A DNA stretch of 64,000 nucleotides from Candidatus Peribacteraceae bacterium (GTDB lineage Bacteria > Patescibacteriota > Gracilibacteria > Peribacterales > Peribacteraceae): NCBI GenBank assembly GCA_028711345.1, contig JAQTSK010000002.1, forward strand, positions 228-64,227, given 5' to 3'. This document shows, piece after piece, positions 5,208 through 37,016 of this stretch; the first letter of the stretch is position 1, and each line of letters begins with the position of its first letter. The position numbers and the translations under genes are program-made. The notes below the pieces were generated by a model that was given only the letters and a program-made list of their open reading frames with translations, was not told the DNA's origin and made no database searches.

Positions 5208-5234
5208 TACGAGATTAACTTGAATGTTATCGTA

Positions 5235-5279
5235 GCTGCGGTTCGAAAACCGCAGCGGCGGCGATTTTCGAATCGCCGC
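5235..5279. repeat. REP-like tandem hairpins
   Basis: GCTGCGGTT-CGAA-AACCGCAGC and GCGGCGATT-TTCG-AATCGCCGC, bracketed by CGTAGC..GCTACGG. Confidence 0.8.
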
Positions 5280-5340
5280 TACGGAGATAAAAGATTCGAA
5301 TCAGGTTAATTCCGTATGACAGGAGTAGAATTGCCGCACT

Positions 5341-5580
5341 ATGAAAAACTCCTGCCAAAGTTGCTTGATGCCGCTTGCCAAAGATCCGGGGAAGAGCGGA
5401 TCGGATCAGTACTGCAGTTACTGCTTCAAAGACGGGAAGCTGGCCTACGAAGGGAATGATCTGAAAGAGTTCCAGCGACGGTGCTTCGAAGGCATGACTG
5501 CCGGTGGCATGGGCAGGTTCAAAGCCCGATTCTTCACCTGGCTGGTTCGCTTCGCGCCGCGGTGGAGAAGGAAGCAGTAG
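5341..5580 (+). CDS. putative zinc-ribbon domain protein
   Basis: CQSC..17 aa..CSYC motif in a 79-aa ORF. Flanked by related hairpin repeats. Confidence 0.55.
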   Translation: MKNSCQSCLMPLAKDPGKSGSDQYCSYCFKDGKLAYEGNDLKEFQRRCFEGMTAGGMGRFKARFFTWLVRFAPRWRRKQ

Positions 5581-5820
5581 GGGGAGCGACTGAGGTTCCA
5601 TCTTTGCTTGTCGGGTTGTGCGGAGCACATTTTCAGTTGAGCCAGCCACGTCGTTCGTTATTGGTGAGTGATACGAAATTAATCTGAATTGTACCGTAGC
5701 GGCGATTCGACAATCGCCCGAAGTGAGCAATCTGATTTCGCAGAACATCGAAAAAAGTATGACTTCTTTGTTAGGGAACTTTCCTTGCTTTTTCAGAGGT
5801 TCCTAAGGAAAAAGGATCGT

Positions 5821-6295: not shown

Positions 6296-8422
6296 TCAAC
6301 GACTGGATAAATACTGATAGATGGCAACAGCCACGTCCTGACGGCTGAGTACAGATCCTGGACGCAGAGAAGCTGATCGGCCGGGGAAGAGAGAATACTT
6401 TTTGGCGATACCGGCATATCGGGCAAACCAAGCGTTCGCCGACACATCCGAATACGTATTGGAGGTATTCAGCTGCAATCCGAAGGTGAGAGCGAGCATC
6501 TTGAGGAACTCAGCCGTGTTCACCTGGTCAGCGGGGCGGAACGTGCCGTCCGGATATCCGTTGATGATCCCTTTCTGCGCAGCCGTCATCACGAACTTCG
6601 TGTACCACTGGCCATCGAGAACGTCCGGAAACGTTCCGCTGTTTGCGATGTCGTCAACGGATCCGTACCGTGCGAGGAGAAGGAACTTCGCCGCCTCGGC
6701 ACGATTCACCGGTTGGTCACCTTTGAATTGCCCGTCAGGGAAACCGCCGATGATCGCTCTGCGATAGAGCTCGGCCGCCGCTTTTCCCGAGAGCTGAGTC
6801 ATATCTGTGTCAGGGAAGGGATTGCGGTACGTTTCGATGTTCGTGAGAACCGTGTCTTCGTAGCCTGCGGGTGGGATTTTCCCGTTGGAAGCAGATGTGA
6901 ATGTTGCACTCTTTACGGCTTGCGTTAATAGACTGCTCAGATGAATTTGTAGATTTTGCACAGTCACATTCTCCGAACACGCACTCTGCGAGTGGATAGA
7001 GGTAATCTGATGGAGGGCATCCACATGGATAATGCCGATACCATCCTGCTCGGCTGTGCAGTAGTGGCCACCGGCGTCTTGGTCAGCTTGAATGAGGGCC
7101 TTGGTCGAAAAAAGCACATTCTTTCCGATAGTTTTACCGTCAGTCTCTTTATCGGGTGCATCCACGATGACGTACACCAGGTCGCTCAGATCGGATGGAA
7201 TGGGGAACTGAATTCCCAGCTCTGGCACTGTAAATACGGCAGAAGGTGTAGTAAATTTAAAAGTAGAAAGAATCTGCGGGCTCACATTTTCAAATGTTGA
7301 ATACTGAGCCGCATAGGTTTTACCATCGTGGTAAGTCAGTTGAACAATTTGATTTTTGGCAACAATCAACTTCACCCAATGGATACCATTCGTTGTGATC
7401 GTTGTTCGTGAATCTATTGTACGTCCGGGTCTGCTGAACACAGGCAACAATGCTTCTGCCTCATTGAGGGGCACATTGTAGACATGAATTGCTAAAGAAT
7501 AGTCTTGTCCTCCAACGGGCATAAAAGCGACATTCGTATCGCTTATAGGACCCTTCCAATTATTCGGATATTTTACCTCATAACCATATTGAGTGTTTGA
7601 ATATGTTTTCCAGCCGGCGGTTGGGTCTGCTGGAGAAGCAACAACGCTGAACGCGACTTTATTACTCATCGTGCCCCATGGCTGTGCATAGAGGTGATAT
7701 GCCCCGGGAGTAATGGTGATAGACGAAGGGCACGGCAAGCCGGAATAGGAAGTATCTTTCGTGCAGTAGCTGCCAGAAAGTTTGAATGTGACCACGGTCG
7801 TCGAATCAGTACTGTCGCCGAGGACGACTCCTTTCTGTCCAGCACCGTTTTCGATCCAGAGATTCTTATCTCCTTCGAAGCCACGCAAGTTAAAGCCGTT
7901 GACCGTCACCGTCGATCCGATTTTTGCTGGATTGGGAGAAACACTGCTGATGGAAGGCACGAGAGACTTAACGCATTTTCCGTCAACGCATGTGTTGGTT
8001 GGACACGGAGCCACAAGACAGGCAATTTGCGGACAATCCGTGTCTGTTTTGCACTGGGAAGATGACGAACATTGACGCGCCAGCGCAGGGCATGCGATCG
8101 ACCCGTTGGCCACTCCGCAATGATTCGAGTCATTTGCCGTCAGAGATTGCCAGCCATTGGAACAGGCGCCCCAATCGCATTTCCAACTCGGCGTACAACT
8201 TGCTTTCGTCGTATTGAACGCATTCAGGCAATCCTGTTGATTGCTGAACGTTTGCAAGCCGAGATACATATATGTGCCGCAAAATTGTTTCCGTGTTTGA
8301 CATTGATCGCCTCCGGCAGTATCAAACCAAAATAAATTTGAGCAGGATATTTCCGCAGCAGAAACAGAAAGGGGAATCAGTGCAGCTGTTACGACAGCAA
8401 GACTGAGGAGATAGTTCTTCAT
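6296..8422 (-). CDS. secreted Cys-rich protein with IPT/TIG-like domain and three C-terminal SLH domains
   Basis: Signal peptide MKNYLLSLAVVTAALIPLSVSAAE from ATG 8422. C-terminus has three repeats of the SLH pattern (FPD..W....V......GI..GYPDGTF.P...V.RAE). Confidence 0.8.
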   Translation of the reverse strand: MKNYLLSLAVVTAALIPLSVSAAEISCSNLFWFDTAGGDQCQTRKQFCGTYMYLGLQTFSNQQDCLNAFNTTKASCTPSWKCDWGACSNGWQSLTANDSNHCGVANGSIACPALARQCSSSSQCKTDTDCPQIACLVAPCPTNTCVDGKCVKSLVPSISSVSPNPAKIGSTVTVNGFNLRGFEGDKNLWIENGAGQKGVVLGDSTDSTTVVTFKLSGSYCTKDTSYSGLPCPSSITITPGAYHLYAQPWGTMSNKVAFSVVASPADPTAGWKTYSNTQYGYEVKYPNNWKGPISDTNVAFMPVGGQDYSLAIHVYNVPLNEAEALLPVFSRPGRTIDSRTTITTNGIHWVKLIVAKNQIVQLTYHDGKTYAAQYSTFENVSPQILSTFKFTTPSAVFTVPELGIQFPIPSDLSDLVYVIVDAPDKETDGKTIGKNVLFSTKALIQADQDAGGHYCTAEQDGIGIIHVDALHQITSIHSQSACSENVTVQNLQIHLSSLLTQAVKSATFTSASNGKIPPAGYEDTVLTNIETYRNPFPDTDMTQLSGKAAAELYRRAIIGGFPDGQFKGDQPVNRAEAAKFLLLARYGSVDDIANSGTFPDVLDGQWYTKFVMTAAQKGIINGYPDGTFRPADQVNTAEFLKMLALTFGLQLNTSNTYSDVSANAWFARYAGIAKKYSLFPGRSASLRPGSVLSRQDVAVAIYQYLSSR

Positions 8423-8996
8423 GAGAGATGGGGGGGGAAGGAGAACTTGCACAATAAGCGCATAAGACTTTTGCGCAAGGGTCTGCGAAGAAACGAAGTC
8501 GTCAGGATTGGACCACTCCGGCACTCGTCTGGACTGAAGATGCTCCATAGTGTTTTTGTCTTTGCATTGTCAGACAAGCTCCCGTGGTGAAAGTGATCGT
8601 TTGAGATGAGACGCACAGCGTCTACGGGGTGCGGTGGAGGGGAATCAGGATTATCGCCGCTTCGCAAGCGGGATTGGGAGACTCTTGGATTCTTATTCGG
8701 TCCTTTCCATGAGGAAGGCGGACAAAATGAATCTGTCACGACAGAATGTTATTCTGTGCTGTTTGGTGCACAGTCACTGATTTTGGACATCGCAAAAGAG
8801 GACGGTAGGCATGCATCGACCATGGTATAACCGGGTCATTTTGTTGCGAAAAATAATGGCAAACCGTGGCCTGCCACGCGAAGCGCCTCCGCAGAGGCGC
8901 GAAGTGTGGCGGAGATGATACGAAAAAGTTGGAACCAGCTTGAACAGCGGCTATTTGGATTCGCAGTACCAATCAAAACGATTGAACGTACTCTGT

Positions 8997-9715: not shown

Positions 9716-9854
9716 CGGGGAAAGTGTAGCATGAATGAGCGCCCGAAATGGTTTGCCACGCGAAGCGCAGCCCATGTGCAATTTTGCCCCACTTCGCACT
9801 CCGGGCTACGCGGGGTACACTTCGTTTCTTTGCTTTTGAAGAAAAGTGCTCAAC

Positions 9855-9901
9855 AAAAAAACGGGCGGCTTGCCACGCGAAGCTCCCCGCAGGGAGCGAA
9901 G
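9855..9901 (-). terminator. candidate displaced native ssrA terminator (hairpin + T7)
   Basis: On the minus strand, directly after the orphan tmRNA 3' fragment: CACTTCGC-TCCC..GGGA-GCTTCGCGTGG hairpin region, then CAAGCCGCCCG and TTTTTTT. Confidence 0.3.
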
Positions 9902-9917
9902 TGTGGTGGAGATGCCG
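9902..9917. repeat. attL core (orphan copy of the tmRNA 3' end)
   Basis: TGTGGTGGAGATGCCG, identical to 27639-27654. Confidence 0.7.
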
Positions 9918-18229: not shown

Positions 18230-19186
18230 TTGTACATATTTTATGAATTTCCCCTCATTTATATGCACAAAGCTCTGCCTAAAGCCCTGGAAACACCAAA
18301 ATACTCACAAAATAATGTTTCGACGGTCGTCTCAGGGGACTTGGAGCGTGTGGTCGCCGCTCTGTTACAGCGGGACGTGAGCAGGAATACCCAGCTCGCC
18401 CTCCGCTCCGACCTCAAGTGTTTTCTTCAGTGGTACGCACAGAAGAACGGAGAGGCGTTCAGATTCCAGCGGGTCGTCATGCGGGACATCACCGATTTCA
18501 GGGATGATCTGAGCAAGACCCTGTCTCCGGCGACCACGAACCGCAGACTCGTGAACGTGCGCCTGTTCCTCCAAGAGGCCGTGGAACTCGACGTGATCCC
18601 CAAGAATCCGGCAAAAAGGGTGAAACAAGTGGCAACGCAGTCTCTCGCTTCCAAGGGACTGACCAAGCAGGAGGCACGGAGATTGATGAAGGAGGTCGAG
18701 ATACGGGCGAATCTTAGGGACTTGGCGGCTGTGAACCTGATGTTGATGGCCGGACTGCGAGCGGGAGAGGTAGTGGCGTTGACTGTGCAGGACGTAGAGA
18801 TGAGCGAACGCAGGGGGACACTGACGATACGGCGTGCCAAGGGGAACAAGACAAGGAGAGTCCCCATCCATCGTGCCCTACGGGCTATCTTGGAGGCGTA
18901 CATCGACCACTACAAGCCAACGGACAAGCTCCTGCTCGGAGAGCGCGGAGCCATTCAGCAGCTTGCGCTCAATGAGATTGTGCGAAAGTACGCGAAGCTC
19001 GCGGGGGTCACGGCGACACCACACACGCTGAGGCATTCATGGGCGTATCAGTATCTCGAACAAAACCCCGGCGACATCGTAGGGCTGGCACAGCTCTTGG
19101 GGCATTCATCCATTAGTACAACGCAAATTTACGTCCAGCATCGGATGGAACAATTGGAGCAGAGGGTGGAGGCGGTGAGCTTCTGA
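18230..19186 (+). CDS. tyrosine recombinase (XerC/D-phage integrase family)
   Basis: SAM-like N-domain. Catalytic region ..GLRAGEV..HTLRHSWAYQYLE..LLGHSSISTTQIYVQH. The start may be ATG 18263. Confidence 0.85.
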   Translation: MYIFYEFPLIYMHKALPKALETPKYSQNNVSTVVSGDLERVVAALLQRDVSRNTQLALRSDLKCFLQWYAQKNGEAFRFQRVVMRDITDFRDDLSKTLSPATTNRRLVNVRLFLQEAVELDVIPKNPAKRVKQVATQSLASKGLTKQEARRLMKEVEIRANLRDLAAVNLMLMAGLRAGEVVALTVQDVEMSERRGTLTIRRAKGNKTRRVPIHRALRAILEAYIDHYKPTDKLLLGERGAIQQLALNEIVRKYAKLAGVTATPHTLRHSWAYQYLEQNPGDIVGLAQLLGHSSISTTQIYVQHRMEQLEQRVEAVSF

Positions 19187-19295: not shown

Positions 19296-20420
19296 CTACA
19301 GAATGCTCACGTCGAGCAACTGCTTCACTGCCCCGACCACCTTCTTCTTTTCGACGCCGAGGAGAGATGCGACCGTAGTTTCCATTTCCTGACGTGCATT
19401 CTTCACTTCCTTTTTTCGTTGCTTGGGATCTTCGCCTGGTTTTTCTTGTCTGCCAAAGACCGCATGGTACTTCTCCACTGCTTGTTGCACTTTGGCGCGG
19501 ACAACTGCTGAGACCTCGGTGGGTGCTGACGTTTGTGGGCGTGGCTGCTCGGCTGCGGGAGCGACGAGCGGTGTTGTCACTGCCTTCACTGTCGTAGGTA
19601 TAGGAGCAGGCGGAGTTTTGACGGAAACCGGAGGAGTGGGGGCTGTTGGCGCTACGGCTTGCGGTTTGGGTGCTACAGATTTGGGGAGTGTCACCGGGGT
19701 CGGCAGTGTTGAGAGCAGGACACCGGGAAGTTGGCCTCTCAGTTTCTGCAAAAACTCATGGGCTCGCGCTTCGCCACCGTTAACAGCTGCAACGAAGAGC
19801 GCGACTTGCTCACTCTTGCGTGTGGCCAAGTAGAAAATGACCTGATCGGAGTACCCCACGCGCCTCAGCATCTCCCACTCGGTTTGCTGCAACGTGAACA
19901 TTTCCGCTGCCAGTGCTTTATCCAGTGCAGCAAAATCAGAGAAGCGCATTTTGGCTATGTCCGCCGCAACCGGAGAAGGGGGCAGCACTATCTCATCCTT
20001 CTTGCTCGCTTGCGCTGCCAATGGTTGCAGTTGCGTCTGCTCACGACCAGCCGTGTCACCTTTGGCTATGATCGGCGGTGGGGTGGGCGCCGCAGGCGTG
20101 GATACGGGAGAAGGAGCGGTCTTCTGAGGTAAAGGCGGCTTAGAGGTCATTGCAGATGGACGCTTCTGCCCCGGGACATGCGCGGGTCCTTGATGCTGAG
20201 CAGGAGTCGACTTGCCACCTTCATGTTGCCCACCCGATTTCTGCTCCGGTTTCCTTGCCACGGGTTGCCCTTTCTGCGCTGCGGCGACTGTGGCAATGGC
20301 GTCTTTCGTGTCAGTGCGCATGGCATCCGCTGGCTTGGGCGTTGACGCCATGGGTGCCACGCGTGTTTCTTCTCGCGGTCTTTCGGTTTCCCTGCGGATA
20401 GCGGTGTGGTGCTCGCACAT
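19296..20420 (-). CDS. hypothetical Pro/Ala-rich protein with a small central globular segment
   Basis: Long P/A/T/K low-complexity arms flank ..[45 protein letters not shown]... First ATG at 20420, 11 nt after the giant ORF stop. Confidence 0.5.
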   Translation of the reverse strand: MCEHHTAIRRETERPREETRVAPMASTPKPADAMRTDTKDAIATVAAAQKGQPVARKPEQKSGGQHEGGKSTPAQHQGPAHVPGQKRPSAMTSKPPLPQKTAPSPVSTPAAPTPPPIIAKGDTAGREQTQLQPLAAQASKKDEIVLPPSPVAADIAKMRFSDFAALDKALAAEMFTLQQTEWEMLRRVGYSDQVIFYLATRKSEQVALFVAAVNGGEARAHEFLQKLRGQLPGVLLSTLPTPVTLPKSVAPKPQAVAPTAPTPPVSVKTPPAPIPTTVKAVTTPLVAPAAEQPRPQTSAPTEVSAVVRAKVQQAVEKYHAVFGRQEKPGEDPKQRKKEVKNARQEMETTVASLLGVEKKKVVGAVKQLLDVSIL

Positions 20421-20431
20421 AGTGAGAAAGG

Positions 20432-23400
20432 TTAGAGAATGAGAGCTTGAGCGTGGTTGCGCCAATCCTCTCGGGTATTGAGGACAGGTTGATTAGATTG
20501 TACCGCTAAACGGAAAGTGTCAATATTATCGCGGACGGCATGGAAGAGTGTGTAGCTGTTGGGATCCCGTGCCCACTGATTAATCGCATCGAAGTACAAA
20601 TTTTGCGTGGGGATGACTGCCAATTCTGCGTGTCCTAGGAAGGTATGAGCGACCTGCGGATTGCCTGCACCGTACACTCCGGTATACGGGTTATAAGTCC
20701 AGGGGGCATCCAGGAGGTGTGAGTGATCTCCTAGGATTTCTTCGTGCCGACGGATGTACTCCTTTCCTGCTTCTGCAAATGGTCCGTTGTGTTCGGCATG
20801 CATGCATGCCGTGTGCACGGCTTGAATGATGCGGGCGTCAGCCGGTTCCAGCACACCCAACACATCAGTCCGCCCGGTACCCCAGCTGAAGGGGAGCGAG
20901 GCGCGTGCGCCCTGCGCGTCGTAACTGATGATTGCCCCGTTTTCTACGCCCGATCCGACCGTCGTCTGGAAATCCTCCGGCACGTAGCGGATCGCTCTAC
21001 TCGCGGCCAACAGGTAACTGGTGGCAAGCACACCGCAATTCCTGAGGCTTAAGCGTCCTGGGCAGCAAACCTGCAATTCCGGTTGCTCGCGGACGCCATG
21101 CCTCTGATTCAAGACTCTGCCTGCATTGAGTACCCACACGCGCAATTCAAACTCTTCTGTAGTAGGAACCGGGGGCAGATTCGCCGATTTCAGCGCATGC
21201 AGCAGGCGGAATCCGGTGCTGTTCCACCCTAATGCCGCGTTGATGACGTTGATTTGCGCGGCACCCATTTCCGAATGAGTGTGAGCCTTCCCTCCGATGG
21301 GAGACATGCCTTTGACGGTTTCTCGACTTTCACGAATGCTCTGGGCAAAGGGAGGAATGTGATCGCTGATCAGTGTGCGCATTTCTTTCCTGGTGAGTGT
21401 GCCTGCGCGCAGTGCTTGCTGTAGATCTCGCCGCACGGGCAGCGTCAGCGCATGGAGCGAATGTTCTGATGGAATAGGGAGGTCGGATGTATCGATCGTA
21501 TCAGCTTTGTCCGCCCCATCCCCATTGAACGGCATTCCAGTGGGTGAGAGATGCGAGGCGAGTGCCACCCTGCCCATTTGACGTCTGAGAAATGTGGAGA
21601 GGAGGAAGACGTAGCAGCGGAAAGAGTCTTCCGTACTCCGCAAGCTTGCCGCTTCCATTTCCGTGGGTGCGGTCTTCACCGAAATACCGAACGATTCCGT
21701 GGGGAACGACTGGACATCGGCGGCGATGGCGGCCAATTCATTGACTTGAAACTCCTCTGCCAGAATGTGATGCACCACCTGACGCGCACCATCATCCGTG
21801 AGCCCGGCCATCTGCCGCAGCAATGCGGAGACTACCTTCATCTGCTTCTGCACCTCCGTACGCACCTCCGGTGCCACTGTCTTCGGTCGGTGCCTGTCTT
21901 CTTCCTCATCTTCGTCCTCTCCCCAGTTGCGGACGAGGAGCTGTCCGATCTGCGCGACCAAGTGAGCAATGGACTCATGCAGAATCGGGTCACCGGTACT
22001 GATATGGCGGTCTGTGCACCAGTCCACGATGGTATGGGCATCGTCCGGACCGACGCATGCGGCCAATTTTCCGGTCAGTTCTTGTGCTTTGGCTGACTCG
22101 ACTTGTCGCTCGACTCGCTCTTCCGTCCATGGCAGCGTACTGATGACGTTGGGCGTGAGTTTCGCATCGGAATTCATCCCCGCACGCACAATCGCAGCGA
22201 TGTCACCGGTGGCAAAATGCTGCTGTGCACCGGATTGCAGGATTGTTGCCACGCGGTCCAATGTCCTGCGCAGCTCATGCAGGCGGTACGATTGCAGACT
22301 CGTTTGGCACTGACCCAAGACCTCCGTCACTTCCTGATGAAACTGCTGTCGGACTTCCTCCACAAAACGGGCACGCGCTTCCGCACTGTCAGCTTCTAGC
22401 TGCTCCTTACGTCTCTCGTTCTGCCGCTTCAGGCGGTAGGAGTTCGGGGGGCTGTACCCCAATGCTTTCTCATTCATTGCAAGATGGTCGATTTCAAATT
22501 GGCATGCAGCGATCTGGTCCTGCCTCTCGCGCTCCGCAACCTCAGGGAGGCGGGTGGCGTCACTGCGCGGGTCATCTTGGAACTTCGCTTGGACGGCCTC
22601 CGTCACCTCAAGATGGATCGGCGCAAAGACCCATGCCAGGATTGTCTTCACATCCTCCTCAGCAAGGAGGTCAAGTCCGTGGAGGTCTAAGAGCCGCGAT
22701 AGGGTGCGGTAGGGTTGCTCTTCCGCAAGGCGCAGTTCTTCACGGTCCGAGAATCGTGGCCCCGTCCCATTGGGGATCACCTGTGTTTCATCGATGTCGT
22801 CTCTGAAGCGCGTCTCCAGTTCGCGCAGCGTATGTTCATCGTCATAGACGGGTTCTCCCTGGTGCGGATACTGGCGCTCCAACCGGTCCAGTACGTCGAT
22901 GAGCCACGCGGGCGGTTGCAGGGGATGTTCTACCCGCGTCGCGCAATATCGGGCGTAGATCGCAGCGAGCAGGGGACCCCGGTAGGATCCCAAGCGGGAG
23001 AATGCAGCATGGAATTGTTGCAGATCCGTGAGAGATGAGGGCGAGCGCTCTGGGGGGGGGCCGGAGGGAGGCGGGTAGTCGCGGAGGGACAATGCGTGCT
23101 CCGAGGCAATCCCCGGCTTGCCGTGAACTGGCAGGCGTAGACGCTCCGGGAGCGGTCGATCGATACTGGTGAGGAGTTTCACTACTTCCTGTGGCGTTGC
23201 GTGGAGGGGGTCCGCGCGCTCCTGGACTCGATGTCTGCGGTCTCCATATGGATCATCATCCTCCTGTGTAACTCTTCCTTTGGATTGATCGAATGCATCT
23301 GCAAGTGCCGTGAGGCAGGGCTTCTGGAAGCTGGTCTGGGGCGTGGTGGTCTCCAAGATGCCCATCATCGGAGATACGGGCTTCTGTTTTTCTAGGAAAA

Positions 23401-25588
23401 TGAGGAATTCCTCCAGAGCAGCCGAACGCCGCTTCGTCGTTGTCTGCTCTATGAGTGCCAGAACATGGCGGAGGACATTGGTCGCTCGCAAGGGATTACC
23501 GATGCCATACCACTCCGTCACGCGCACGGTGCAATCGATCGCGCGTTCCTGTCCGATCCCCTCCATTGCTCCCAGCTGATATCCAGCGCGCTTGTAGGTT
23601 TCCAGTGCGTACTCGTACAGCGGTCCAGCGCGTCTGGCCATGGCCAGCGAGAGTGCGCACCCTTCTTGATTCGGCTCCACAGCGATACCGTGGCGGTAGC
23701 GAAACAAAGCGCGTCCCATTTCTTGCTCCTGCGGCCAGGTGGTGGGGATATGTTTGTGGTTCACGTATTCCTGTCTGGTGAATTCATCCTCTTCCCTCTC
23801 TTCGTCGTAATCATAAGTATTGTAAAAACCAGCACGCCTGGCCCGATACTCCATTTTTCTGATCTCCCGCAATTCACCACGAAGGGAACTGATTGCATGT
23901 TGCAAGGCATGTGCTTTCCAATCCTCAACACGACTCTGTATTTCAACTAATTCTCTTTCATCCACTAATCCCAATCCATCCACATCGACAATGCGTTGCG
24001 TGAGCTCCTTCGTGCATTGATGTCTTTCGGGATTGCAGTAGCGATCCATGACCATGGTACAACGTTGCGGGTTGACTCCTTGTTCCGATAAGCACGGAAG
24101 GTCGCGGAGAAAGGCGATTACAAAGTCCTTGCGAATATCCTCGATCGAGATCCAGGCGCCATGTTCACGCAGGAACGTGATGGCCTGCGGGTTGATTTCT
24201 CCTAGGGCTTCCTGTGCAGTTGTGAGGAGCTCCCACGTGTGCGCATCGGTTCCCTCGGGAGGGGTATTGGTTTCAGCCGGATCGAACGTCTGCTCGGCCA
24301 GACCAGCCTTCTCATTAAACCACCAAGGCAATTTTCCATTGCCGTAGATCGCCTGCACCAGATCAATGCCGTAGAGCACAGCGGCAGAGAGATCACCCGC
24401 AGCGGCGACTTTGCGAATGAGTGTAGTGAGCGATGCCATCCGCAATCCCTGTCTTAGGAACGCAGGCAGAGAGTGTAGAAAATCAATGATCCGTTCCTGT
24501 TCCAGATCTGTGCGAGTCAGCGTGTGATCAATGACGAATCCCACAGCTTCCGGCGTTAAATCGCGCATTTGTTCCTGTAACTGGCGGATGACTGCGCATT
24601 GTTCCGGTGGAAGGTGCCTCATGCGAAAGGGTGACTTTTCTTCTTGCGCGTTGCATACCAAGGGTGCGGTATGCTCCAAGCATTGCGCGATAAAGTCCGG
24701 CGGGAAGAACATGTGTCGGCGCATGGCAAAAGCCCCGCCCGCCATGGTCTCCGTACACTCCTTGGCCCACTGAAGCGGTGGTAAGCGGTGTGGCTGCGTT
24801 TTGCGGTAATGAACCGGCGCACCGAACTGAGCGTAGAACGAAGGCCAACCCATCCACGTTGCCTGCGCGCGCGCCTGTCCACCCTGCTTGAGGCGCAATT
24901 GTTCTAAACTGTAGAGCACAGCGATTTCCTGCTGTAGGATGGGGCCATTTCTGTACCGGCCGTACTGCAATTCAATTGTGTTATCCCCGCGCCATGTTAT
25001 GTACCCAGGTGACAAGGGAGCGCGTCGATCGATTACGCGTCGTTGCGTTGCGATCAGTTCTTCGGAGTTATCGTGGGCAAGGTAACGGACACTGTCGTAC
25101 TGGTTGACGTACGCGCGTCCGAAGTTGAATCCGGTATTGGGATTGCCGTGCTGCGATTTGCGGATGTTGTGGTCCGGCGGCAGTCTGAGGAGGAGCTTAC
25201 TGGTGCTCCCTGGTACATCCTCCGCCAAGCGGTACGTGAACCGGTCCGGGAGATCCGGTTGGGGGTAGGCGCTGCGTTCTCCGCTCCTGCCGTTCATCAT
25301 TTCCAAAAGCTCCCACTCTTCCTGTTCCTCGGGTGTCCGTTGCTGTCGCTCTTCCCCGCATTCTTCGCGCTCTCTATCATGCTCAGCCCAGTAGAGGTCC
25401 GTATTTCTGCGCCGTTGCTGCTCCTCGGGATCGTCATCTTCATCGCGGTAGCGGCTGCTCCTGAGCCCTGGCAGACCAGTGAGATGCATAGATATTAAAA
25501 TTGAAAGAGTGGAGCATTTTAACAAAAGTGACAAATAATGCAAATCATTATCTGATGTATCTTCAGCGGGGAGGGTATGGAACCTCAT
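20432..25588 (-). CDS. orphan giant protein (1718 aa)
   Basis: An uninterrupted 5.2-kb ORF cannot arise by chance. No P-loop, HExxH or other motif I recognise. Acidic, helical-looking N-terminal two thirds and a denser C-terminal 350 aa. The start is uncertain (25588 or 25489). Confidence 0.7.
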   Translation of the reverse strand: MRFHTLPAEDTSDNDLHYLSLLLKCSTLSILISMHLTGLPGLRSSRYRDEDDDPEEQQRRRNTDLYWAEHDREREECGEERQQRTPEEQEEWELLEMMNGRSGERSAYPQPDLPDRFTYRLAEDVPGSTSKLLLRLPPDHNIRKSQHGNPNTGFNFGRAYVNQYDSVRYLAHDNSEELIATQRRVIDRRAPLSPGYITWRGDNTIELQYGRYRNGPILQQEIAVLYSLEQLRLKQGGQARAQATWMGWPSFYAQFGAPVHYRKTQPHRLPPLQWAKECTETMAGGAFAMRRHMFFPPDFIAQCLEHTAPLVCNAQEEKSPFRMRHLPPEQCAVIRQLQEQMRDLTPEAVGFVIDHTLTRTDLEQERIIDFLHSLPAFLRQGLRMASLTTLIRKVAAAGDLSAAVLYGIDLVQAIYGNGKLPWWFNEKAGLAEQTFDPAETNTPPEGTDAHTWELLTTAQEALGEINPQAITFLREHGAWISIEDIRKDFVIAFLRDLPCLSEQGVNPQRCTMVMDRYCNPERHQCTKELTQRIVDVDGLGLVDERELVEIQSRVEDWKAHALQHAISSLRGELREIRKMEYRARRAGFYNTYDYDEEREEDEFTRQEYVNHKHIPTTWPQEQEMGRALFRYRHGIAVEPNQEGCALSLAMARRAGPLYEYALETYKRAGYQLGAMEGIGQERAIDCTVRVTEWYGIGNPLRATNVLRHVLALIEQTTTKRRSAALEEFLIFLEKQKPVSPMMGILETTTPQTSFQKPCLTALADAFDQSKGRVTQEDDDPYGDRRHRVQERADPLHATPQEVVKLLTSIDRPLPERLRLPVHGKPGIASEHALSLRDYPPPSGPPPERSPSSLTDLQQFHAAFSRLGSYRGPLLAAIYARYCATRVEHPLQPPAWLIDVLDRLERQYPHQGEPVYDDEHTLRELETRFRDDIDETQVIPNGTGPRFSDREELRLAEEQPYRTLSRLLDLHGLDLLAEEDVKTILAWVFAPIHLEVTEAVQAKFQDDPRSDATRLPEVAERERQDQIAACQFEIDHLAMNEKALGYSPPNSYRLKRQNERRKEQLEADSAEARARFVEEVRQQFHQEVTEVLGQCQTSLQSYRLHELRRTLDRVATILQSGAQQHFATGDIAAIVRAGMNSDAKLTPNVISTLPWTEERVERQVESAKAQELTGKLAACVGPDDAHTIVDWCTDRHISTGDPILHESIAHLVAQIGQLLVRNWGEDEDEEEDRHRPKTVAPEVRTEVQKQMKVVSALLRQMAGLTDDGARQVVHHILAEEFQVNELAAIAADVQSFPTESFGISVKTAPTEMEAASLRSTEDSFRCYVFLLSTFLRRQMGRVALASHLSPTGMPFNGDGADKADTIDTSDLPIPSEHSLHALTLPVRRDLQQALRAGTLTRKEMRTLISDHIPPFAQSIRESRETVKGMSPIGGKAHTHSEMGAAQINVINAALGWNSTGFRLLHALKSANLPPVPTTEEFELRVWVLNAGRVLNQRHGVREQPELQVCCPGRLSLRNCGVLATSYLLAASRAIRYVPEDFQTTVGSGVENGAIISYDAQGARASLPFSWGTGRTDVLGVLEPADARIIQAVHTACMHAEHNGPFAEAGKEYIRRHEEILGDHSHLLDAPWTYNPYTGVYGAGNPQVAHTFLGHAELAVIPTQNLYFDAINQWARDPNSYTLFHAVRDNIDTFRLAVQSNQPVLNTREDWRNHAQALIL

Positions 25589-26021: not shown

Positions 26022-27860
26022 ATGGCTTACATGAGAACAACTCGAACAGACGCAAGGAAGCCGCGGCGCGTTGCTCAGTACATTCGCGTTTCGACTTTGG
26101 AGCAGGCGAAAGAGGGGAACAGCCTTCAGGGACAGCAGGACAGCTTGGCGAAGTACATCGAATCCAATGCAGACAGCGAGAACAATTGGGTCACCAGCAA
26201 GACGCTCGTTTACGTTGATGATGGATACTCCGGTGCGGACGATGAGCGACCCGAGTTCAAGCGCATGATGCGTGACGCCAAAGAACGGAAGTTCGACGTG
26301 CTACTTGTTTGGAAGATTGATCGGCTGTTCCGCAACACGCTCCTGCTTCTGGAGACGATCAAGGAGCTGAAGAAATATGGCGTGGAGTTCGCCTCGAAGA
26401 ACGAGCTGATCGACACGTCCAAGTCCACAGGCAGATTCCTCCTGACGATTCTTGGCGCCATTGCCGAGATGGAGCGCGAGACCATCCGCGAGCGCACAAT
26501 CATGGGCAAGATTACGAGCGCAAAGAACGGAAATTACGTCGGAGGAAAGTACCCGCCCTTCGGTTATGACGTGGATAAGCACGGCAAGATGGTCATCAAC
26601 AAAGACGAGGCAAAAATCGTACTTGAAATATTCACGATGCTCGTAGAAGAGAAGAAGACCCAAACACAGATTGCCAAGATACTCACTGCCCGCAGAGTTC
26701 CCACGAAGTCAGACCGCGTGGGAGTGGAGCGTCGGACGAATCAGGTGGGTTTTTGGGGTCAGGCTGCGATCGCTGCGATTTTACTGAAGGACGAATATGC
26801 AGGAACGTACTACTACGGCAAGCGTGAGACCTACCTGAACGAGAACGAAGACAAGCGCCAGCGGGAACGCCCCCGTGAGGAATGGATTCCTCTGCCGTGC
26901 CCCGAGATCATCCCGAAACCCATGTTCGACAAGGCGCGACTGATTGCGCGTGAGAACGAGCAATATTCCATTCGTGCCTCGGATCATGTCTACCTGCTCC
27001 GCAGCAAAGTCTACTGCGGCGAATGCGGCGGCAGATACCAAGGCTATCCCAAGAAGAAAAAGGGCATCGTGTACTTCAATTACCATTGCAGCCGGAAGAA
27101 TCCGGGCAAGAGTGAGAAGCCGTGCTTGAACAAAGAGATGTCCGAAAAGAAGCTGGATGTCATCGTATGGAAGACAATCGATGAGCTGCTCAGTGATCCC
27201 AAAGCAACGCTCAAGGCGTTCGATACCAAGATGCGAGAAGAGTCGAAGGCTGCCGAGTACCAGTCTCAGATTAAAGATTATCAAGATGAGCTGGATGAGA
27301 AGGACAAGGAGCTGGGACGCTTGGTGGCTGCCATGAAGCGAGGGAAGATGTCCGATGCGATCTACGACAATGAGGTGGACACGACCAATACCGAGATGGC
27401 GACCATCCGTACCGAAATTGCCCGACTCGGGAATCTCCTTTCCACAGAGCTGGAGCGAGAAGAGCTGAAGAAGTCACTGGCGAGACTTGCGACCGAATAT
27501 CGCAAGAAATACGGCAAAATTGACCGGAAGACACAGGAAGTGATCATCCGAAAGCTTGTAAACAAAGTGGTTATCCACGCTTCGGGCAAAATCACTGTGG
27601 ATTACGCAATCCCGACAATTCAAAATCGGGTATTTAAATGTGGTGGAGATGCCGGGAGTCGAACCCGGGTCCAACGTGTACGCCGACGGTCAGTACGATC
27701 ATGGTCTTCTCAGTTCTCTCATCCCCTGAGAGAAGAACAGAGAAAGGGTGAGAGTGATGACGCTGTATTCAGGAGTCCGTCACGTCAGTCGGAATCCAAC
27801 CCCGCTAGTGACGTTTCACCCGTCCAGCGAGGATCAACGGGGAAACGTGGTCCGAAGTGA
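26022..27860 (+). CDS. large serine recombinase (integrase); last 68 codons are antisense ssrA
   Basis: Resolvase catalytic domain VAQYIRVSTLEQ..DDGYSG..RPEF, recombinase domain, zinc ribbon CGECGG..YHCSRK, coiled-coil. The ORF reads through the att core into the tmRNA gene. Confidence 0.85.
   Translation: MAYMRTTRTDARKPRRVAQYIRVSTLEQAKEGNSLQGQQDSLAKYIESNADSENNWVTSKTLVYVDDGYSGADDERPEFKRMMRDAKERKFDVLLVWKIDRLFRNTLLLLETIKELKKYGVEFASKNELIDTSKSTGRFLLTILGAIAEMERETIRERTIMGKITSAKNGNYVGGKYPPFGYDVDKHGKMVINKDEAKIVLEIFTMLVEEKKTQTQIAKILTARRVPTKSDRVGVERRTNQVGFWGQAAIAAILLKDEYAGTYYYGKRETYLNENEDKRQRERPREEWIPLPCPEIIPKPMFDKARLIARENEQYSIRASDHVYLLRSKVYCGECGGRYQGYPKKKKGIVYFNYHCSRKNPGKSEKPCLNKEMSEKKLDVIVWKTIDELLSDPKATLKAFDTKMREESKAAEYQSQIKDYQDELDEKDKELGRLVAAMKRGKMSDAIYDNEVDTTNTEMATIRTEIARLGNLLSTELEREELKKSLARLATEYRKKYGKIDRKTQEVIIRKLVNKVVIHASGKITVDYAIPTIQNRVFKCGGDAGSRTRVQRVRRRSVRSWSSQFSHPLREEQRKGESDDAVFRSPSRQSESNPASDVSPVQRGSTGKRGPK
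27639..27654. repeat. attR core within the ssrA 3' end
   Basis: TGTGGTGGAGATGCCG. Its reverse complement is the CGGCATCTCCACCA acceptor/CCA end of the tmRNA plus 2 nt. Confidence 0.7.
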
Positions 27861-28040
27861 ATCAGACCTTAGGCAGTGACGAGAGAGGGCAAGCGAACAG
27901 AGTTCACGAGGTCCTCCACGTATGCCATGAAATTGCTTTTGGCAATTATGGTTTGCTCCAAGTGGGTAACGGGAACCAGAGCAATCCCGGATCGAGACGC
28001 AGTCGACGCATTGTCACGCTGTCGAAAGCCTGTCATCCCC
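27641..28040 (-). ncRNA. ssrA: tmRNA (transfer-messenger RNA)
   Basis: 5' GGGGATGACAGGCTTTCGACAGCG.. and 3' ..GGACCCGGGTTCGACTCCCGGCATCTCCACCA. The acceptor stem GGGGATG/CATCTCC carries the G3:U alanine identity pair. Internal tag frame ends ..LVTA-TAA at 27869-27871. Confidence 0.9.
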
Positions 28041-32702: not shown

Positions 32703-35700
32703 TCACTTCTTCTTGAACCGGATTTTGAGCTTCCTACGGACGACGTCGATCTCATGAATTTCCGCCTCGTCGCACGGACGGATCTCCGAACGGGTTTCGC
32801 TTTCGATGAGATCCTTGTGAGCGGAGACAATCTCATCGCCGCCGTCGACCTGCAACGTGATGGTGTCGGTGAACTCGAGTCCGCTTTCTTTGCGAAGCGT
32901 CTGGATTGCATGGATCAGTTCTCGGGCAGCACCCTCATTCTCCAATGCTTCATTTACAGCAATATCCAGCGTGACAACGATGCCTCGGTTGGCGGCGACG
33001 GTCTGCCCTTCCTTGCTCTGATGAATGATCTTCGCCTCCTCGGGTGACAGTGTCTCGCCGAGGATGATGATGACACCGTCCTTCTCCTCGAATTTGCCTT
33101 CTTTTCCTGCCTTGATCACTTCCTGCACTTTCTTGCCGAGTCGCGGACCGACTTTGCGCGCATCGACCTGTACAATTGAAGATGCGAGTGCGGAGGCATC
33201 CGTCGTTCTGATGACCTGTTTCACGTTCAGTTCCTCTTTGATCAGCTCCGTGACGACACCGACGGCATCGGACGGCGGCAGAGCGAAAGTGACGGATTGC
33301 AGAGGTTGGCGGACGCGGATCTTGGCATCCGATCGGAGTGAGAGGCCGAGAGTTACAACCTGCCGGGTGCTTTCCATCAGTTGCAGCAGCTTCTGATCTT
33401 CTTCATTGATTTGAACGGACACCGGCCAGTCGGTGAAGTGGATGCTGCCGTGATCTTCTTCGACGAGATTGAGGTAGATCGCCTCGGTGACGAACGGGCA
33501 GAACGGCGCGAGCAATTGGCAGTTGGCGATGATGACGCGGTAGAGCGTATCCAGCGCATCGGTTCCGCCTTCTTCCTTGGCGCTGAAACGCCGCCTGCTC
33601 AACCGGACATACCAGTTCGTCAGATCATCGATGGAATCGGCGAGGTGCGCGCAGGTGGCGGAGAGGTCGTAGCCGTCCAGTTCCGTCGTCATATTGTTCA
33701 CCAGTTCCTGCGTCTTGAGGATGATCCAGCGATCCAGCTGATTCGTCGATGTCCCATTCTTGAGCGACGAATCCAACGACGGTTTCCAGTTCGCCGCATT
33801 GGCGTACGTCACGAAGAGCCGGTACGTGTTCCACAGCGGCAGGAGCACTGATCGCACCGTCTCCTCCACCAGCTTCTCAGAGAACCGCAGATCTTCTCCT
33901 CTGACTGCGGGTGATGCCATCAATGCAAACCGGACGGCATCGGCGCCGTGTTTCTTCACCACTTCCGTCGGCTCGGGGTAGTTCTTGAGGCGCTTACTCA
34001 TCTTCTTGCCGTCCTCCGCCAGCACGATCCCGTTGACGACGCAGTGCTTGAACGCGGGGCATTTGAACAGAGCACTGGAGAGCACCATGAGCGTGTAGAA
34101 CCACCCGCGCGTCTGATCCAGCCCCTCCGCGATGAAGTCCGCGGGGAAGCCGACCGGACTGTCCGATTTCACCTCGAACGGGAAATGATCCTGCGCGTAG
34201 GGCATGGAACCGGATTCGAACCAGCAATCAAGCACTTCCTCGATGCGGCGCATCTGCGGACGGAGTGTGATGTTCACGGGAGCGCCATTCCTTGGTTGTA
34301 CCTGCGGCATATCTTCATATGCGATGCCTTCCGCGACCATCCTGAACGCTTGTGAGAAGCCTCCATGTGATATGAGGAGCACGCGTTTCCCCGCATATTC
34401 TTTCAAGAGAAAATCATGTGCACGCTGCGCCCGTTCGATGAATCGGTCGAATGATTCACCGTTCGGCCCGGCGGAACGCGAAAAGCAAATACCTTTGAAG
34501 GCCTTGTCATTCAGCAATGATTCAATGTCCTTCACCGGTTTCATGTCCCACTCCCCGACATTCCGTTCGGTGAAGAGTTCCCCTTCTTTCACGTCCGCAA
34601 CCCCCAGTTCCTTGGCGATGATTGTTGCCGTTTCTTTCGCCCTCTTCAGGGGAGAAGAGATGATCACATCAAACTGCTGACCTTTCAGCTGCTCGGCGGC
34701 TTGCTTCGCCTGTGTCCTGCCCGTCTTGTTCAGTTTCGTGTCCGCTCCGCTGCCCTGTACGATTTTCAGTTTGTTCAAGTCGGTCTCCCCGTGCCTGACC
34801 AGCGTCACTTCCACCTCACTGCCTTTATTGCCCTTACTGCCTTCACTGCCTTTATTCCAAACAATTCCATCCACCGATTCCTTATGCAGATCCATCTGCG
34901 CATTCCTCTCGTGGTCCCAGTAGAAGGTGCGCAGCGACGCGAGAGCGGGGTACGGCTGATGCACGATCTTGTTCGGCTCCTGTCCCGTGAAGAAGTGGAC
35001 AATGTTCATGATGGGGTCCGCGTGTGTCACGATCGAAATGGATTCTCCCCGATGCTTCGGCAGAATTTCCTTGAGGAACGATTCCACGCGTCTGCCGACG
35101 TCCGCCCACGTCTCCATGCCGTGGAAGTGGTAGATGCTTTCCACCTGCCCCTGCTCCAGTTTGTGCGCTCTGCGTTCGCGGACGAAGGTGAGATCGTCGA
35201 AATCCACGTGCTTGCCCTCGTACTCCCCGAAATCCACTTCCTTCAGCCGCTCATCGATGATAATTTTTGCGCCCGTTGCCTTGGCCACGGCTTCGGCCGT
35301 CTCCCGCGTGCGCCTAAGCGGCGAGCAGTAGATGACCTTCACGGGCAGACTGTCGGCCTGCTCTTTCAGCCGGTCAGCGAGCGCTTTCGCTTGCTGTTGC
35401 CCGTTGTCCGTGAGAGGAGTGGACGGTTCCTTGCACTGGTAGATTTTGTCGACGTTGCCCTGACTTTCCGCATGACGCGAGATGAAGATTTTCGTGAAGC
35501 GCGTCGGCGCTTTGGCCATCAGTTCGCTGCGCGAGCCGATCACTTCCACCTCGCCGGTCGTCGTATTGCGCCAGATGGGCAGCGGCGTGCCCCAGAAGCG
35601 GTTTCTGGAAATCGCCCAGTCTCTCGCTCCCTCCAGCCATTTGCCGAACCGTCCGTCGCGGAGGTGGGAGGGTACCCACTGCGTCTGTGCATTGGACTTG

Positions 35701-37016
35701 AGCATTGTTTCCTTGATCTTCTCCACCGCGACGAACCACGAGCTGGTCGCGTAGTTGAGGAGAGGTGTGTCGCACCGCCAGCAGTGAGGGTAACTATGGG
35801 TGACGGTGTAGCTGTCGAAGTGGCGGCCCATCTCCTTGAGTTTGCGGATGATCGCCTTATCGGTGCTCATCGGATCTTTGCCTTCGGGCTTGATCAGCAT
35901 GCCCTTAAAATCAGTGACTTCACTGAAGAAATTGTTATCCGTCGTCACGTGGTGCAGGACGTCGACCTTCAGCTTCTTGGCCAGCTCGAAGCCGTCTTCG
36001 CCGTAGGAGGTCGTCATGTGGACGATGCCCGTTCCTTCGTCCTCCGACACTTCCGGATGCAGCAGAATGTTGAATGCTTTCTCGCCGTACGTGACGGGCT
36101 TTCCTTCTGCGGCCGATGACGGCAGCACCTTGTCGACGAAATAGTTGAAGAGGGGAACGTACTTCTTGCCGACCAGTTCCGATGCTTTGATGTCGCCGGT
36201 GATCTCGTATGTCCGTTTCTTGAAGATCTTCTCGACCAGCTTTTTGGCGACAATGTACGTCGTATCGCCCTCTTTGACTTTGACGTAGTGAATCTCATCT
36301 TTCATCGCCAGCCAGATGTTCCCCGGCAGCGACCACGGCGTCGTCGTCCAAGCGAGGATCACCGTTTTCGGATCGTCTACGAGTGGAAAGGTCATGATTA
36401 CGGATTGGTCCGTCCGGTCCCGGTAGCCCTGCGTTACTTCGAAATTGGAGAGCGGTGTCACGCAGCGGGGGCAGATGTGCATCGACTTGTATCCCTCGTA
36501 GATCAGCTTCTGTTCATGGAGCTGCTTGAATACCCACCAGATACTTTCCATGTAATCCGCATCCATCGTGCGGTAATCCCAGTCCATGTCCACGAAGCGG
36601 CCGAGGCGTTCGACGGTCGATCTCCATTCCCCCGTGTAGCGCTGGACGGCGGTGCGGCAAAGGTTGTTGAAGTTGGCGATACCCAAGGTTTCGATGTCCT
36701 TCTTGGAGGTAAGCCCCTTCTCCTTTTCGATCTCGTTCTCCACCGGCAGTCCGTGGCAGTCCCAGCCGAAGCGGCGCTTCACGAACTTCCCGCGCATGGT
36801 TTGGTACCGCGGGATGACGTCTTTGATGGTGCCGGCGAGGATGTGGCCGTAGTGCGGTAAGCCGGTTGCAAACGGCGGTCCGTCGTAGAAGCTGAAGATC
36901 TCCCCCTTCTCGCGGCGGTGCATGGAGCGCTTGAAGGTGTCTTCCTCGCGCCAGTACTTCAGGATCCCGAGCTCGAGGTCGGGGAGGGATTGCTTGGGGT
37001 CAACGGAGTCGAACAT
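32703..37016 (-). CDS. ileS: isoleucine--tRNA ligase (type 2) with two inserted histidine-phosphatase domains
   Basis: HYGH and KMSKR class-I motifs; editing and anticodon-binding regions present. Extra RHAES.. (34902-35504) and RHGET.. (34257-34814) phosphoglycerate-mutase-like domains. Confidence 0.9.
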   Translation of the reverse strand: MFDSVDPKQSLPDLELGILKYWREEDTFKRSMHRREKGEIFSFYDGPPFATGLPHYGHILAGTIKDVIPRYQTMRGKFVKRRFGWDCHGLPVENEIEKEKGLTSKKDIETLGIANFNNLCRTAVQRYTGEWRSTVERLGRFVDMDWDYRTMDADYMESIWWVFKQLHEQKLIYEGYKSMHICPRCVTPLSNFEVTQGYRDRTDQSVIMTFPLVDDPKTVILAWTTTPWSLPGNIWLAMKDEIHYVKVKEGDTTYIVAKKLVEKIFKKRTYEITGDIKASELVGKKYVPLFNYFVDKVLPSSAAEGKPVTYGEKAFNILLHPEVSEDEGTGIVHMTTSYGEDGFELAKKLKVDVLHHVTTDNNFFSEVTDFKGMLIKPEGKDPMSTDKAIIRKLKEMGRHFDSYTVTHSYPHCWRCDTPLLNYATSSWFVAVEKIKETMLKSNAQTQWVPSHLRDGRFGKWLEGARDWAISRNRFWGTPLPIWRNTTTGEVEVIGSRSELMAKAPTRFTKIFISRHAESQGNVDKIYQCKEPSTPLTDNGQQQAKALADRLKEQADSLPVKVIYCSPLRRTRETAEAVAKATGAKIIIDERLKEVDFGEYEGKHVDFDDLTFVRERRAHKLEQGQVESIYHFHGMETWADVGRRVESFLKEILPKHRGESISIVTHADPIMNIVHFFTGQEPNKIVHQPYPALASLRTFYWDHERNAQMDLHKESVDGIVWNKGSEGSKGNKGSEVEVTLVRHGETDLNKLKIVQGSGADTKLNKTGRTQAKQAAEQLKGQQFDVIISSPLKRAKETATIIAKELGVADVKEGELFTERNVGEWDMKPVKDIESLLNDKAFKGICFSRSAGPNGESFDRFIERAQRAHDFLLKEYAGKRVLLISHGGFSQAFRMVAEGIAYEDMPQVQPRNGAPVNITLRPQMRRIEEVLDCWFESGSMPYAQDHFPFEVKSDSPVGFPADFIAEGLDQTRGWFYTLMVLSSALFKCPAFKHCVVNGIVLAEDGKKMSKRLKNYPEPTEVVKKHGADAVRFALMASPAVRGEDLRFSEKLVEETVRSVLLPLWNTYRLFVTYANAANWKPSLDSSLKNGTSTNQLDRWIILKTQELVNNMTTELDGYDLSATCAHLADSIDDLTNWYVRLSRRRFSAKEEGGTDALDTLYRVIIANCQLLAPFCPFVTEAIYLNLVEEDHGSIHFTDWPVSVQINEEDQKLLQLMESTRQVVTLGLSLRSDAKIRVRQPLQSVTFALPPSDAVGVVTELIKEELNVKQVIRTTDASALASSIVQVDARKVGPRLGKKVQEVIKAGKEGKFEEKDGVIIILGETLSPEEAKIIHQSKEGQTVAANRGIVVTLDIAVNEALENEGAARELIHAIQTLRKESGLEFTDTITLQVDGGDEIVSAHKDLIESETRSEIRPCDEAEIHEIDVVRRKLKIRFKKK

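Follow-up and report, generated by a model that had tools for sequence, protein, structure and literature searches.

The window analysed here, a stretch of 64,000 nucleotides on contig JAQTSK010000002.1 of a Candidatus Peribacteraceae bacterium (genome of 1.77 Mb, 54.6% GC, 93 contigs), contains a giant gene that is followed on the same strand by a smaller partner gene. The giant gene is a member of an unannotated family that, in the genomes sampled, is confined to one class within the Candidate Phyla Radiation (CPR), the Peribacteria/Gracilibacteria, and the recurrence of the same arrangement indicates that the two genes form a conserved operon of this class of small-genome groundwater bacteria, the products of which both appear to be soluble proteins without transmembrane segments. 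We propose, with a probability of roughly 0.35, that the giant protein is a ligase-like enzyme acting on the exposed N-terminal cysteine of its partner. This proposal draws on the modelled fold of the C-terminal domain of the giant protein, on the polar residues that are invariant in it, and on the signature with which the partner proteins begin.

Most lineage-specific proteins of CPR bacteria, which represent a large share of bacterial diversity, have no known function. Here, a supposed orphan becomes a defined family with a confidently modelled core, invariant residues and a partner with a five-residue signature, and the minimal version of the pair (about 590 plus about 55 amino acids) is small enough for expression and assay. 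Should the ligase-like reading be correct, the pair would open a new branch within the glutamine-synthetase-like fold, as well as a new route by which proteins are modified or tagged at an N-terminal cysteine. Otherwise it would still be a clean structural target, considering that the N-terminal body of some 900 residues has no neighbour in the PDB.

The giant gene, its family and its partner

The open reading frame (ORF) of the giant gene is unbroken from 20432 to 25588 on the minus strand (1718 codons, up to an ATG at 25588), and the coordinates, spacing and lengths that the initial annotation gave for the two ORFs are essentially right. The true start of the gene is most likely M34 (ATG at 25489), yielding a protein of 1685 amino acids, and the first 33 codons are probably not translated. 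This assignment is based on the only close homologue, P0004 (1703 amino acids, 54% identity over the full length), which aligns from M34 onwards, on the database copy of the window protein (P0003, 1685 amino acids), which begins at the same residue, as well as on a promoter-like site located within the first 33 codons; P0003 and P0004 both open with MH(L/I). It should be noted that the promoter-like site is a consensus match only, and that the region overall shows no excess of such sites. Because P0004 is colinear with the giant protein over its full length on independent contigs from JGI, ENA and Logan, the suspicion that the giant ORF could be an assembly chimera can be dismissed.

The giant protein has an isoelectric point (pI) of 5.65, and its maximum hydropathy over 19 residues is 1.28, which makes a transmembrane segment or a signal peptide unlikely. 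Over its N-terminal two thirds the protein is acidic and for the most part helical, as had been noticed from the translation. Three conserved blocks, A, B and C, were delimited by a local phmmer search (Table 1; residue numbers refer to the 1685-residue protein). The protein is longer than the usual 1350 or so residues of the family, partly through an insert between blocks A and B that carries the second copy of a helical unit of about 55 residues (residues 305–358 and 426–481, pairwise E = 3e-6). The initial statement that the ORF contains no repeat motif is therefore not strictly correct. Neither protein of the pair gave a significant match in Pfam, NCBIfam, PHROG, PADLOC or PDB-sequence searches, and PDB sequence and profile searches returned nothing meaningful. 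Pfam likewise recognized no domain in seven relatives, and the only matches to either protein or to the relatives were at noise level (DUF6247, 19.6 bits where 26.9 would be needed to pass the cut-off; TMP_3, E = 0.19; Csa3, E = 0.024). The N-terminal 906 residues are predicted to form a mostly helical body, with a mean predicted local distance difference test (pLDDT) score of 78 and a predicted template modelling (pTM) score of 0.77, for which Foldseek found nothing below E = 2 in the PDB (best E = 2.3).

The description of the giant protein as an orphan did not survive a full HMMER search in which its last 422 residues were compared with 1.84 billion representative proteins. At E ≤ 1e-3 this search retrieved 219 relatives, of which 123 reached E ≤ 1e-10; almost without exception they are 600–1900 amino acids long and match at their own extreme C-terminus. 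Among 90 long representatives examined with a hidden Markov model of the family, 49 contain blocks A, B and C and 40 contain only block C, so that block C is the universal module and the N-terminal body is variable; the short members with block C only measure 589–776 amino acids. A separate homologue search with the whole protein, the family alignment and the C-terminal region recovered only the window protein, P0004 and one other sequence, low-complexity words having swamped the candidates. The one relative with an NCBI record is annotated as "hypothetical protein [Candidatus Peribacteraceae bacterium]", and no description of the giant-protein family was found in the literature.

The distribution of the family was examined with the family profile. 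Apart from the window's own genome, a member was present in none of 300 genomes drawn evenly from the phylum and in 28 of 400 genomes of the class (about 7%), seven of which belong to the same GTDB family as the window. The metagenome-assembled genomes (MAGs) that carry a member are labelled Candidatus Peribacteria, Peribacteraceae or Gracilibacteria, these labels coming in part from a search with a four-sequence alignment (five loci). One member with an MCVTHR partner, on the 4.8-kb contig CAYTAW010000288.1 (L041), is binned to a Bdellovibrionales MAG; either the contig was assigned to the wrong bin, or the family does occur, rarely, outside the CPR. The members in five genomes (G615, G490, G644, G503 and G317) contain 2–12 in-frame TGA codons, as expected where TGA is read as an amino acid, and the family therefore spans both genetic codes.

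Wherever a giant gene could be read together with its flanking sequence, another ORF in the same direction starts no more than 60 nt from its stop codon, and in about 20 loci this ORF starts with ATG-TGY, i.e. with Met-Cys. This recurrence bears out the initial idea of a functional pair. In the window, the partner frame is open from 19296 to 20465 on the minus strand, and its working ATG at 20420 lies, as annotated, 11 nt past the TAA of the giant gene. Its product has 374 amino acids rather than 375, and the picture of low-complexity arms around a small core is correct (44% of the residues are Pro, Ala, Thr or Lys). Its N-terminal cysteine is its only cysteine, and the same is true of 10 of the 15 partners considered. 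The partners of the family range from 55 to 603 amino acids and are mostly basic and disordered, none of them having a hydrophobic segment; those of the short, 589–776-residue giant-family members are only 55–67 amino acids long.

The partners diverge rapidly. That of the window shares 41% identity with the partner of the 54% homologue, and beyond this pair similarity is barely detectable. The constant feature is represented by the first five residues, M-C-x-x-H, with which nearly all of the partners begin, while the C-termini vary. In addition to MCEHHT in the window, the N-termini MCNEHH, MCDSHR, MCETHR, MCNTHK, MCESHH, MCDDHH, MCGDHE, MCKNHT, MCNGHD, MCEHHQ, MCGHHC, MCETHK, MCDNHR and MCVTHR were found, along with the variants MCRSQR, MCQKGS and MCYRTQ. 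Because the motif also accompanies the short members that have block C only, it goes with block C and not with the helical body.

Three loci deviate from the simple arrangement. In one MAG (L036, 5446–9284) the gene call divides the giant gene into two overlapping parts encoding 852 and 427 amino acids, with an ATGA-type overlap at 8001–8004 and a Met-Cys partner still following; either the gene is split here or a frameshift may be involved. Genome G368 (contig C2, 148150–155714; L028) contains two giant-plus-partner modules in tandem, with their own partners MCESHH and MCDDHH, and G437 (contig C44; L022) a second, convergent giant paralogue without a partner of its own. A cluster of S41-peptidase and SLH genes was also considered as a third conserved neighbour of the pair, and was rejected because only the SLH or PDZ-like domains common to its proteins hold it together and its distances vary.

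A candidate ligase-like reaction at the partner N-terminus

The last 345 residues of the giant protein were modelled from a 27-sequence alignment as an alpha/beta domain with 5–7 strands (mean pLDDT 86.4, pTM 0.88). The initial annotation had described the C-terminal 350 or so residues as compact, globular and possibly enzymatic; the model confirms the compactness, and an enzymatic nature is probable. Over 16 aligned loci, the members of which are only 25–35% identical, 12 polar residues are invariant (R1389, K1401, H1403, E1446, Q1473, R1479, D1524, R1540, D1542, D1551, W1597 and H1620), the sole exception being K1401R in the lineage represented by genomes G557 and G567. In the predicted structure, many of them are located on or beside successive beta-strands.

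When the predicted domain was compared with the PDB using Foldseek, the best matches were YbdK/GCS2 (1tt4, 1r8g), the gamma-glutamylmethylamide synthetase GmaS, glutamine synthetases and the depupylase Dop, with E values of 0.012–0.24, probabilities up to 0.72 and template modelling (TM) scores of 0.26–0.32. Among the 47 top-ranking matches from BFVD, a viral library, 11 bear the name amidoligase, although the best match overall is an unnamed protein (E = 5e-3, probability 0.85). Structure prediction in segments, which had been recommended, thus gave a confident fold with weak ligase-like matches for the C-terminal domain, and a body without PDB neighbours for the N-terminal part. Almost all the best matches in both libraries come from the carboxylate-amine ligase superfamily, and since it is unlikely that two independent libraries would point to one small superfamily by chance, a glutamine-synthetase-like fold is the best lead at hand. 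On balance, a relationship in fold between the C-terminal domain and the glutamine-synthetase-like carboxylate-amine ligases, which are built on a curved cradle of antiparallel beta-sheet with helices, is somewhat more probable than not.

If so, the C-terminal domain would be a divergent enzyme of this fold, and the partner would offer it a substrate. Methionine aminopeptidase strips the initiator methionine in front of small residues such as cysteine and glycine, and its action would expose a free N-terminal cysteine on the partner (a glycine in the lineage with an MG start, see below). The C-terminal domain could then act on this cysteine by acylation or ligation, unless the cysteine itself serves the domain as a nucleophile provided in trans; most plausibly, a carboxylate would be activated and joined to the amine or the thiol of the cysteine. 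As for the large helical N-terminal body, which differs from one subfamily to another, it would serve as a scaffold or for targeting. Precedents for such a reaction are glutamate-cysteine ligase, which acts on free cysteine, a small molecule, and PafA, which acts on the protein Pup.

The comparison with known systems shows how far these parallels extend. With the carboxylate-amine ligase superfamily (glutamine synthetase, GCS2/YbdK, Amidoligase_2), the C-terminal domain shares the charged residues on successive beta-strands, and the reaction of glutamate-cysteine ligase links a carboxylate with the amino group of cysteine, the very residue that the window partner would expose at its N-terminus. 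In contrast to these enzymes, the domain is fused to 600–1400 amino acids of new helical sequence, its presumed substrate is a protein and not a metabolite, its structural matches reach a TM score of only about 0.3, no Pfam model recognizes it, and its first strand reads G-G-K-x-H. The actinobacterial Pup-PafA/Dop system likewise couples an enzyme of the glutamine synthetase fold to a small disordered protein; Dop is among the weak matches, and the minimal partners of 55–67 amino acids are about the size of Pup. However, Pup is recognized and ligated via its C-terminal GG[QE], while here the conserved end is the N-terminal M-C-x-x-H and the C-termini (LLDVSIL, ..PKFL.. and others) do not have GG[QE]. 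In addition, the Pup_ligase model did not match the giant protein, and no proteasome, Mpa or Dop genes were present in the annotated contexts of the window or of the relatives. By analogy, one might imagine an N-terminal mirror image of pupylation, that is, a CPR conjugation system joining the carboxylate of a metabolite or protein to the N-terminal cysteine of a disordered partner, but we regard this extension as quite unlikely.

A third parallel is offered by the pairs of an Amidoligase_2 protein with a class-II glutamine amidotransferase, such as tf_21/tf_22 of Pseudomonas phage tf, in which an amidoligase-type gene also precedes a gene beginning with Met-Cys (tf_22 starts with MCGVVG). The phage protein is, however, a folded Ntn amidotransferase of about 530 amino acids, whereas the partners described here are disordered. 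The possibility that the partner itself is a class-II (Ntn) glutamine amidotransferase was considered in view of its Met-Cys start and rejected, because it has no GATase match, is of low complexity, and in the family may be as short as 55 amino acids, compared with about 200 for the Ntn fold.

One coincidence hints at a coupling between the C-terminal domain and the partner: the lineage in which the partner starts with MG (MGEHHR type, G557/G567) is also the only one with K1401R. Being a single evolutionary event, it is a hint only, and several other points weigh against a ligase acting on the cysteine. Two partner lineages have no cysteine at the second position, namely the MG lineage just mentioned and that of G403, where no clear Met-Cys start is present. 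The fold matches are weak, none of them reaching E < 1e-3. No Pfam model of the superfamily matches the giant protein (E ≤ 1) or any of 27 C-terminal domains (E ≤ 10), and the PF12224 and PF04107 profiles, run against the whole genome, did not match the family domain. The hhalign comparisons with E. coli YbdK and with the phage tf amidoligase were also negative, single-sequence targets being a weak test. Finally, on the first strand, where carboxylate-amine ligases bind metal through acidic residues (an ExE-type motif), nearly all members of the family have G-G-K-x-H (with R for K in G557/G567); an ATP/Mg-dependent ligation is therefore not assured. Other invariant acidic residues are present elsewhere in the domain (E1446, D1524, D1542 and D1551).

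The missing acidic motif would be accounted for if the pair were a non-catalytic complex, in which an acidic helical scaffold binds the basic disordered partner, or a nucleic acid, electrostatically, the C-terminal domain being a binding module or a pseudo-enzyme and the M-C-x-x-H tip a docking or metal-mediated anchor instead of a substrate. The opposite charge of the two proteins (pI 5.65 and 9.8) fits such a complex, as do the large helical body of new fold predicted for the N-terminal 900 residues and the fact that cysteine and histidine are a classic pair of metal ligands. Nevertheless, 12 polar residues (R, K, H, E, Q and D among them) kept invariant at 25–35% identity resemble an active site more than a docking surface, and the presumed scaffold is precisely the variable part of the family. 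Among the alternatives this is the one that survives best, and yet we judge it unlikely.

Genomic context and the remaining alternatives

The next alternative concerns the biological role of the pair rather than its mechanism, and is best judged from the genomic context. As initially annotated, the pair is located in an island, which direct repeats of the ssrA 3' end delimit over about 17.7 kb. It is recognizable as an ssrA island by this direct repeat of the 3' end of the gene for transfer-messenger RNA (tmRNA) and by the recombinase beside ssrA, both of which it shares with known ssrA integrative islands; the pair differs from an island function in being host-like in composition and in lying outside any island in the relatives, and can be described as a passenger. 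Its neighbours in the island are recombinases, a primase-polymerase and nucleases. Among the ORFs of the genome, the giant gene ranks at the 27th percentile for GC content at third codon positions (GC3), and its codon-use distance is 0.318, compared with a genome mean of 0.355. The partner is at the 13th percentile, while the left part of the island is unusually GC-poor (2nd–5th percentile), with the GapS1-like genes at the 2nd–3rd and the primase-polymerase at the 5th. With 56.9% GC against a genome mean of 54.6%, the giant gene is therefore "GC-rich", as it had been called, only relative to the GC-poor left half of the island. The pair is cargo of the island by position, and does not appear foreign by composition.

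In the relatives the surroundings are different. In the 54% relative (L001), recO and vanW flank the pair and there is no recombinase in the vicinity; in the genome of the window, these two genes adjoin without the pair, overlapping convergently (contig C57, 16909–20552). In other relatives it is found beside serS, groEL, hisS and other housekeeping genes, as partly read by eye. Since the sites differ in this way, the pair evidently relocates as a unit. Its divergence (54% identity for the giant protein, 41% for the partner) is comparable with what is seen for nearby housekeeping proteins (45–66%), the giant protein falling within the range, which suggests a long residence in the lineage and no recent import; the comparison thus points to a pair long adapted to this lineage.

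The role of the pair could possibly be that of a housekeeping accessory or of a conflict system. In the latter case it would be anti-phage, anti-host or mobile-element maintenance cargo, with the C-terminal enzyme as the effector and the partner as a regulator or sensor. The position in an ssrA island beside GapS1-like genes, the patchy distribution over about 7% of the genomes of the class, and the different site in almost every genus, with the recO/vanW site empty here, are all in line with this idea. The same holds for the fast evolution of the partner, for the occurrence in G368 and G437 of two adjacent giant-family genes (each with its own partner in G368), and for a PhdYeFM antitoxin or a transposase nearby in two loci. 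On the other hand, PADLOC gave no match, the codon use is host-like, and most of the relatives' pairs lie among housekeeping genes (recO, serS, groEL, hisS) with no recombinase nearby. A conflict role, which appears slightly less probable than the non-catalytic complex, is compatible with the ligase mechanism and could use the same chemistry.

The initial annotation had read the layout of the two genes as that of an effector with a partner or immunity protein, which would here mean a secreted or contact-dependent effector with a C-terminal toxin domain. A large protein with a compact C-terminal domain and a small gene directly after it would indeed suit this interpretation. In polymorphic toxins, however, the N-terminal trafficking part is conserved and the C-terminal toxin domain varies. 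The giant family shows the reverse: practically every member has the C-terminal domain, while blocks A and B are found in 49 of the 90 long ones. Pfam and hydropathy analysis revealed no signal peptide, transmembrane segment, trafficking or secretion-associated domain, there are no secretion-system genes nearby in the annotated contexts of the window and of the relatives, and the partners are disordered proteins of 55–603 amino acids that are conserved only in their first five residues. The effector-immunity layout is thus largely refuted, and appears improbable. The other initial suggestion, a virion or surface structural pair, for which a tape measure with its chaperone or an S-layer component might be considered, can call upon a long helical protein and an integrative element with a primase-polymerase, but is refuted for practical purposes by the absence of PHROG or tape-measure homology (TMP_3 only at E = 0.19), of capsid, portal, terminase and tail genes in the island, and of a signal peptide or SLH domain in the two proteins, as well as by the housekeeping surroundings in the relatives.

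The ssrA island and other features of the window

The positions of the features discussed are collected in Table 1.

Table 1. Giant gene, partner gene and ssrA island: positions of features in the window.
Feature	Position	Strand	Remarks
Distal attachment (att) repeat, far end of the island	9899..9917	.	18/19 nt match, 16 in one exact run
Tyrosine recombinase	18230..19186	+	Convergent with the partner gene; at the boundary of the GC-poor and host-like halves of the island
Partner gene	19296..20420	-	374 aa, starts MCEHHT; P/A/T/K-rich disordered arms around a small helical core; pI 9.8
Codons for M-C-E-H-H	20406..20420	-	N-terminal motif common to the partner family
Giant gene	20432..25489	-	Likely product 1685 aa from M34; TAA at 20434-20432
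C-terminal domain (block C), residues 1350-1685	20435..21442	-	Universal module of the family
Acidic helical linker, residues 876-1349	21443..22864	-	Poorly conserved in the family
Block B, residues 600-875	22865..23692	-	All-helical; motifs Y-G-I-G-N..R-A-x-N-V and P-x-x-P-P
Insert of about 195 aa, residues 406-599	23693..24274	-	Missing from typical family members of about 1350 aa
Helical unit of about 55 aa, second copy	24047-24214	-	In the insert; first copy in block A, 24416-24577
Block A, residues 110-405	24275..25162	-	Alpha+beta, then helical; motifs P-x-x-W-A, V-C-N and P-W-W-F
Promoter-like site TTTGCA-17-TAAAAT, extended -10	25544-25516	-	27 nt upstream of ATG 25489
Large serine recombinase	26022..27860	+	Divergent from the giant gene; 3' end overlaps ssrA
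att repeat at the ssrA 3' end (AAATGTGGTGGAGATGCCG)	27636..27654	.	
ssrA (tmRNA) gene	27641..28040	-	Integration target of the island

The ORF of the serine recombinase extends 220 nt into ssrA in antisense, so that its last 73 or so codons are antisense to the tmRNA gene; the recognized domains of the protein end near residue 500 of 612. The tag peptide predicted by ARAGORN for this ssrA is unusually long, with 24 residues (AKSNFMAYVEDLVNSVRLPSLVTA). To the left of the distal end of the island, modules of the form GCCACGCGAAGC...GAAGTGTGG(T/C)GGAGATG are repeated at 8867–8920, 9749–9768 and 9866–9917. These are additional, diverged copies of the region at the ssrA 3' end, and they suggest that integration occurred earlier or in tandem.

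Three further observations concern the remainder of the window. An IS1595-family transposase gene (ORF 847–1797) lies between perfect 24-nt inverted repeats (794–817 and 1779–1802) and looks like an intact insertion sequence. A 25-nt inverted repeat with 96% match (5260–5284 and 5694–5718) brackets most of a 173-codon ORF without a family match (5227–5748), which is located at the drop in GC content on the left side of the GC-poor region. Finally, the window encodes, at 32703–37016 on the minus strand, an isoleucyl-tRNA synthetase of 1437 amino acids that contains histidine-phosphatase (His_Phos_1) domains inside its catalytic body (Pfam E = 4e-82, in two stretches).

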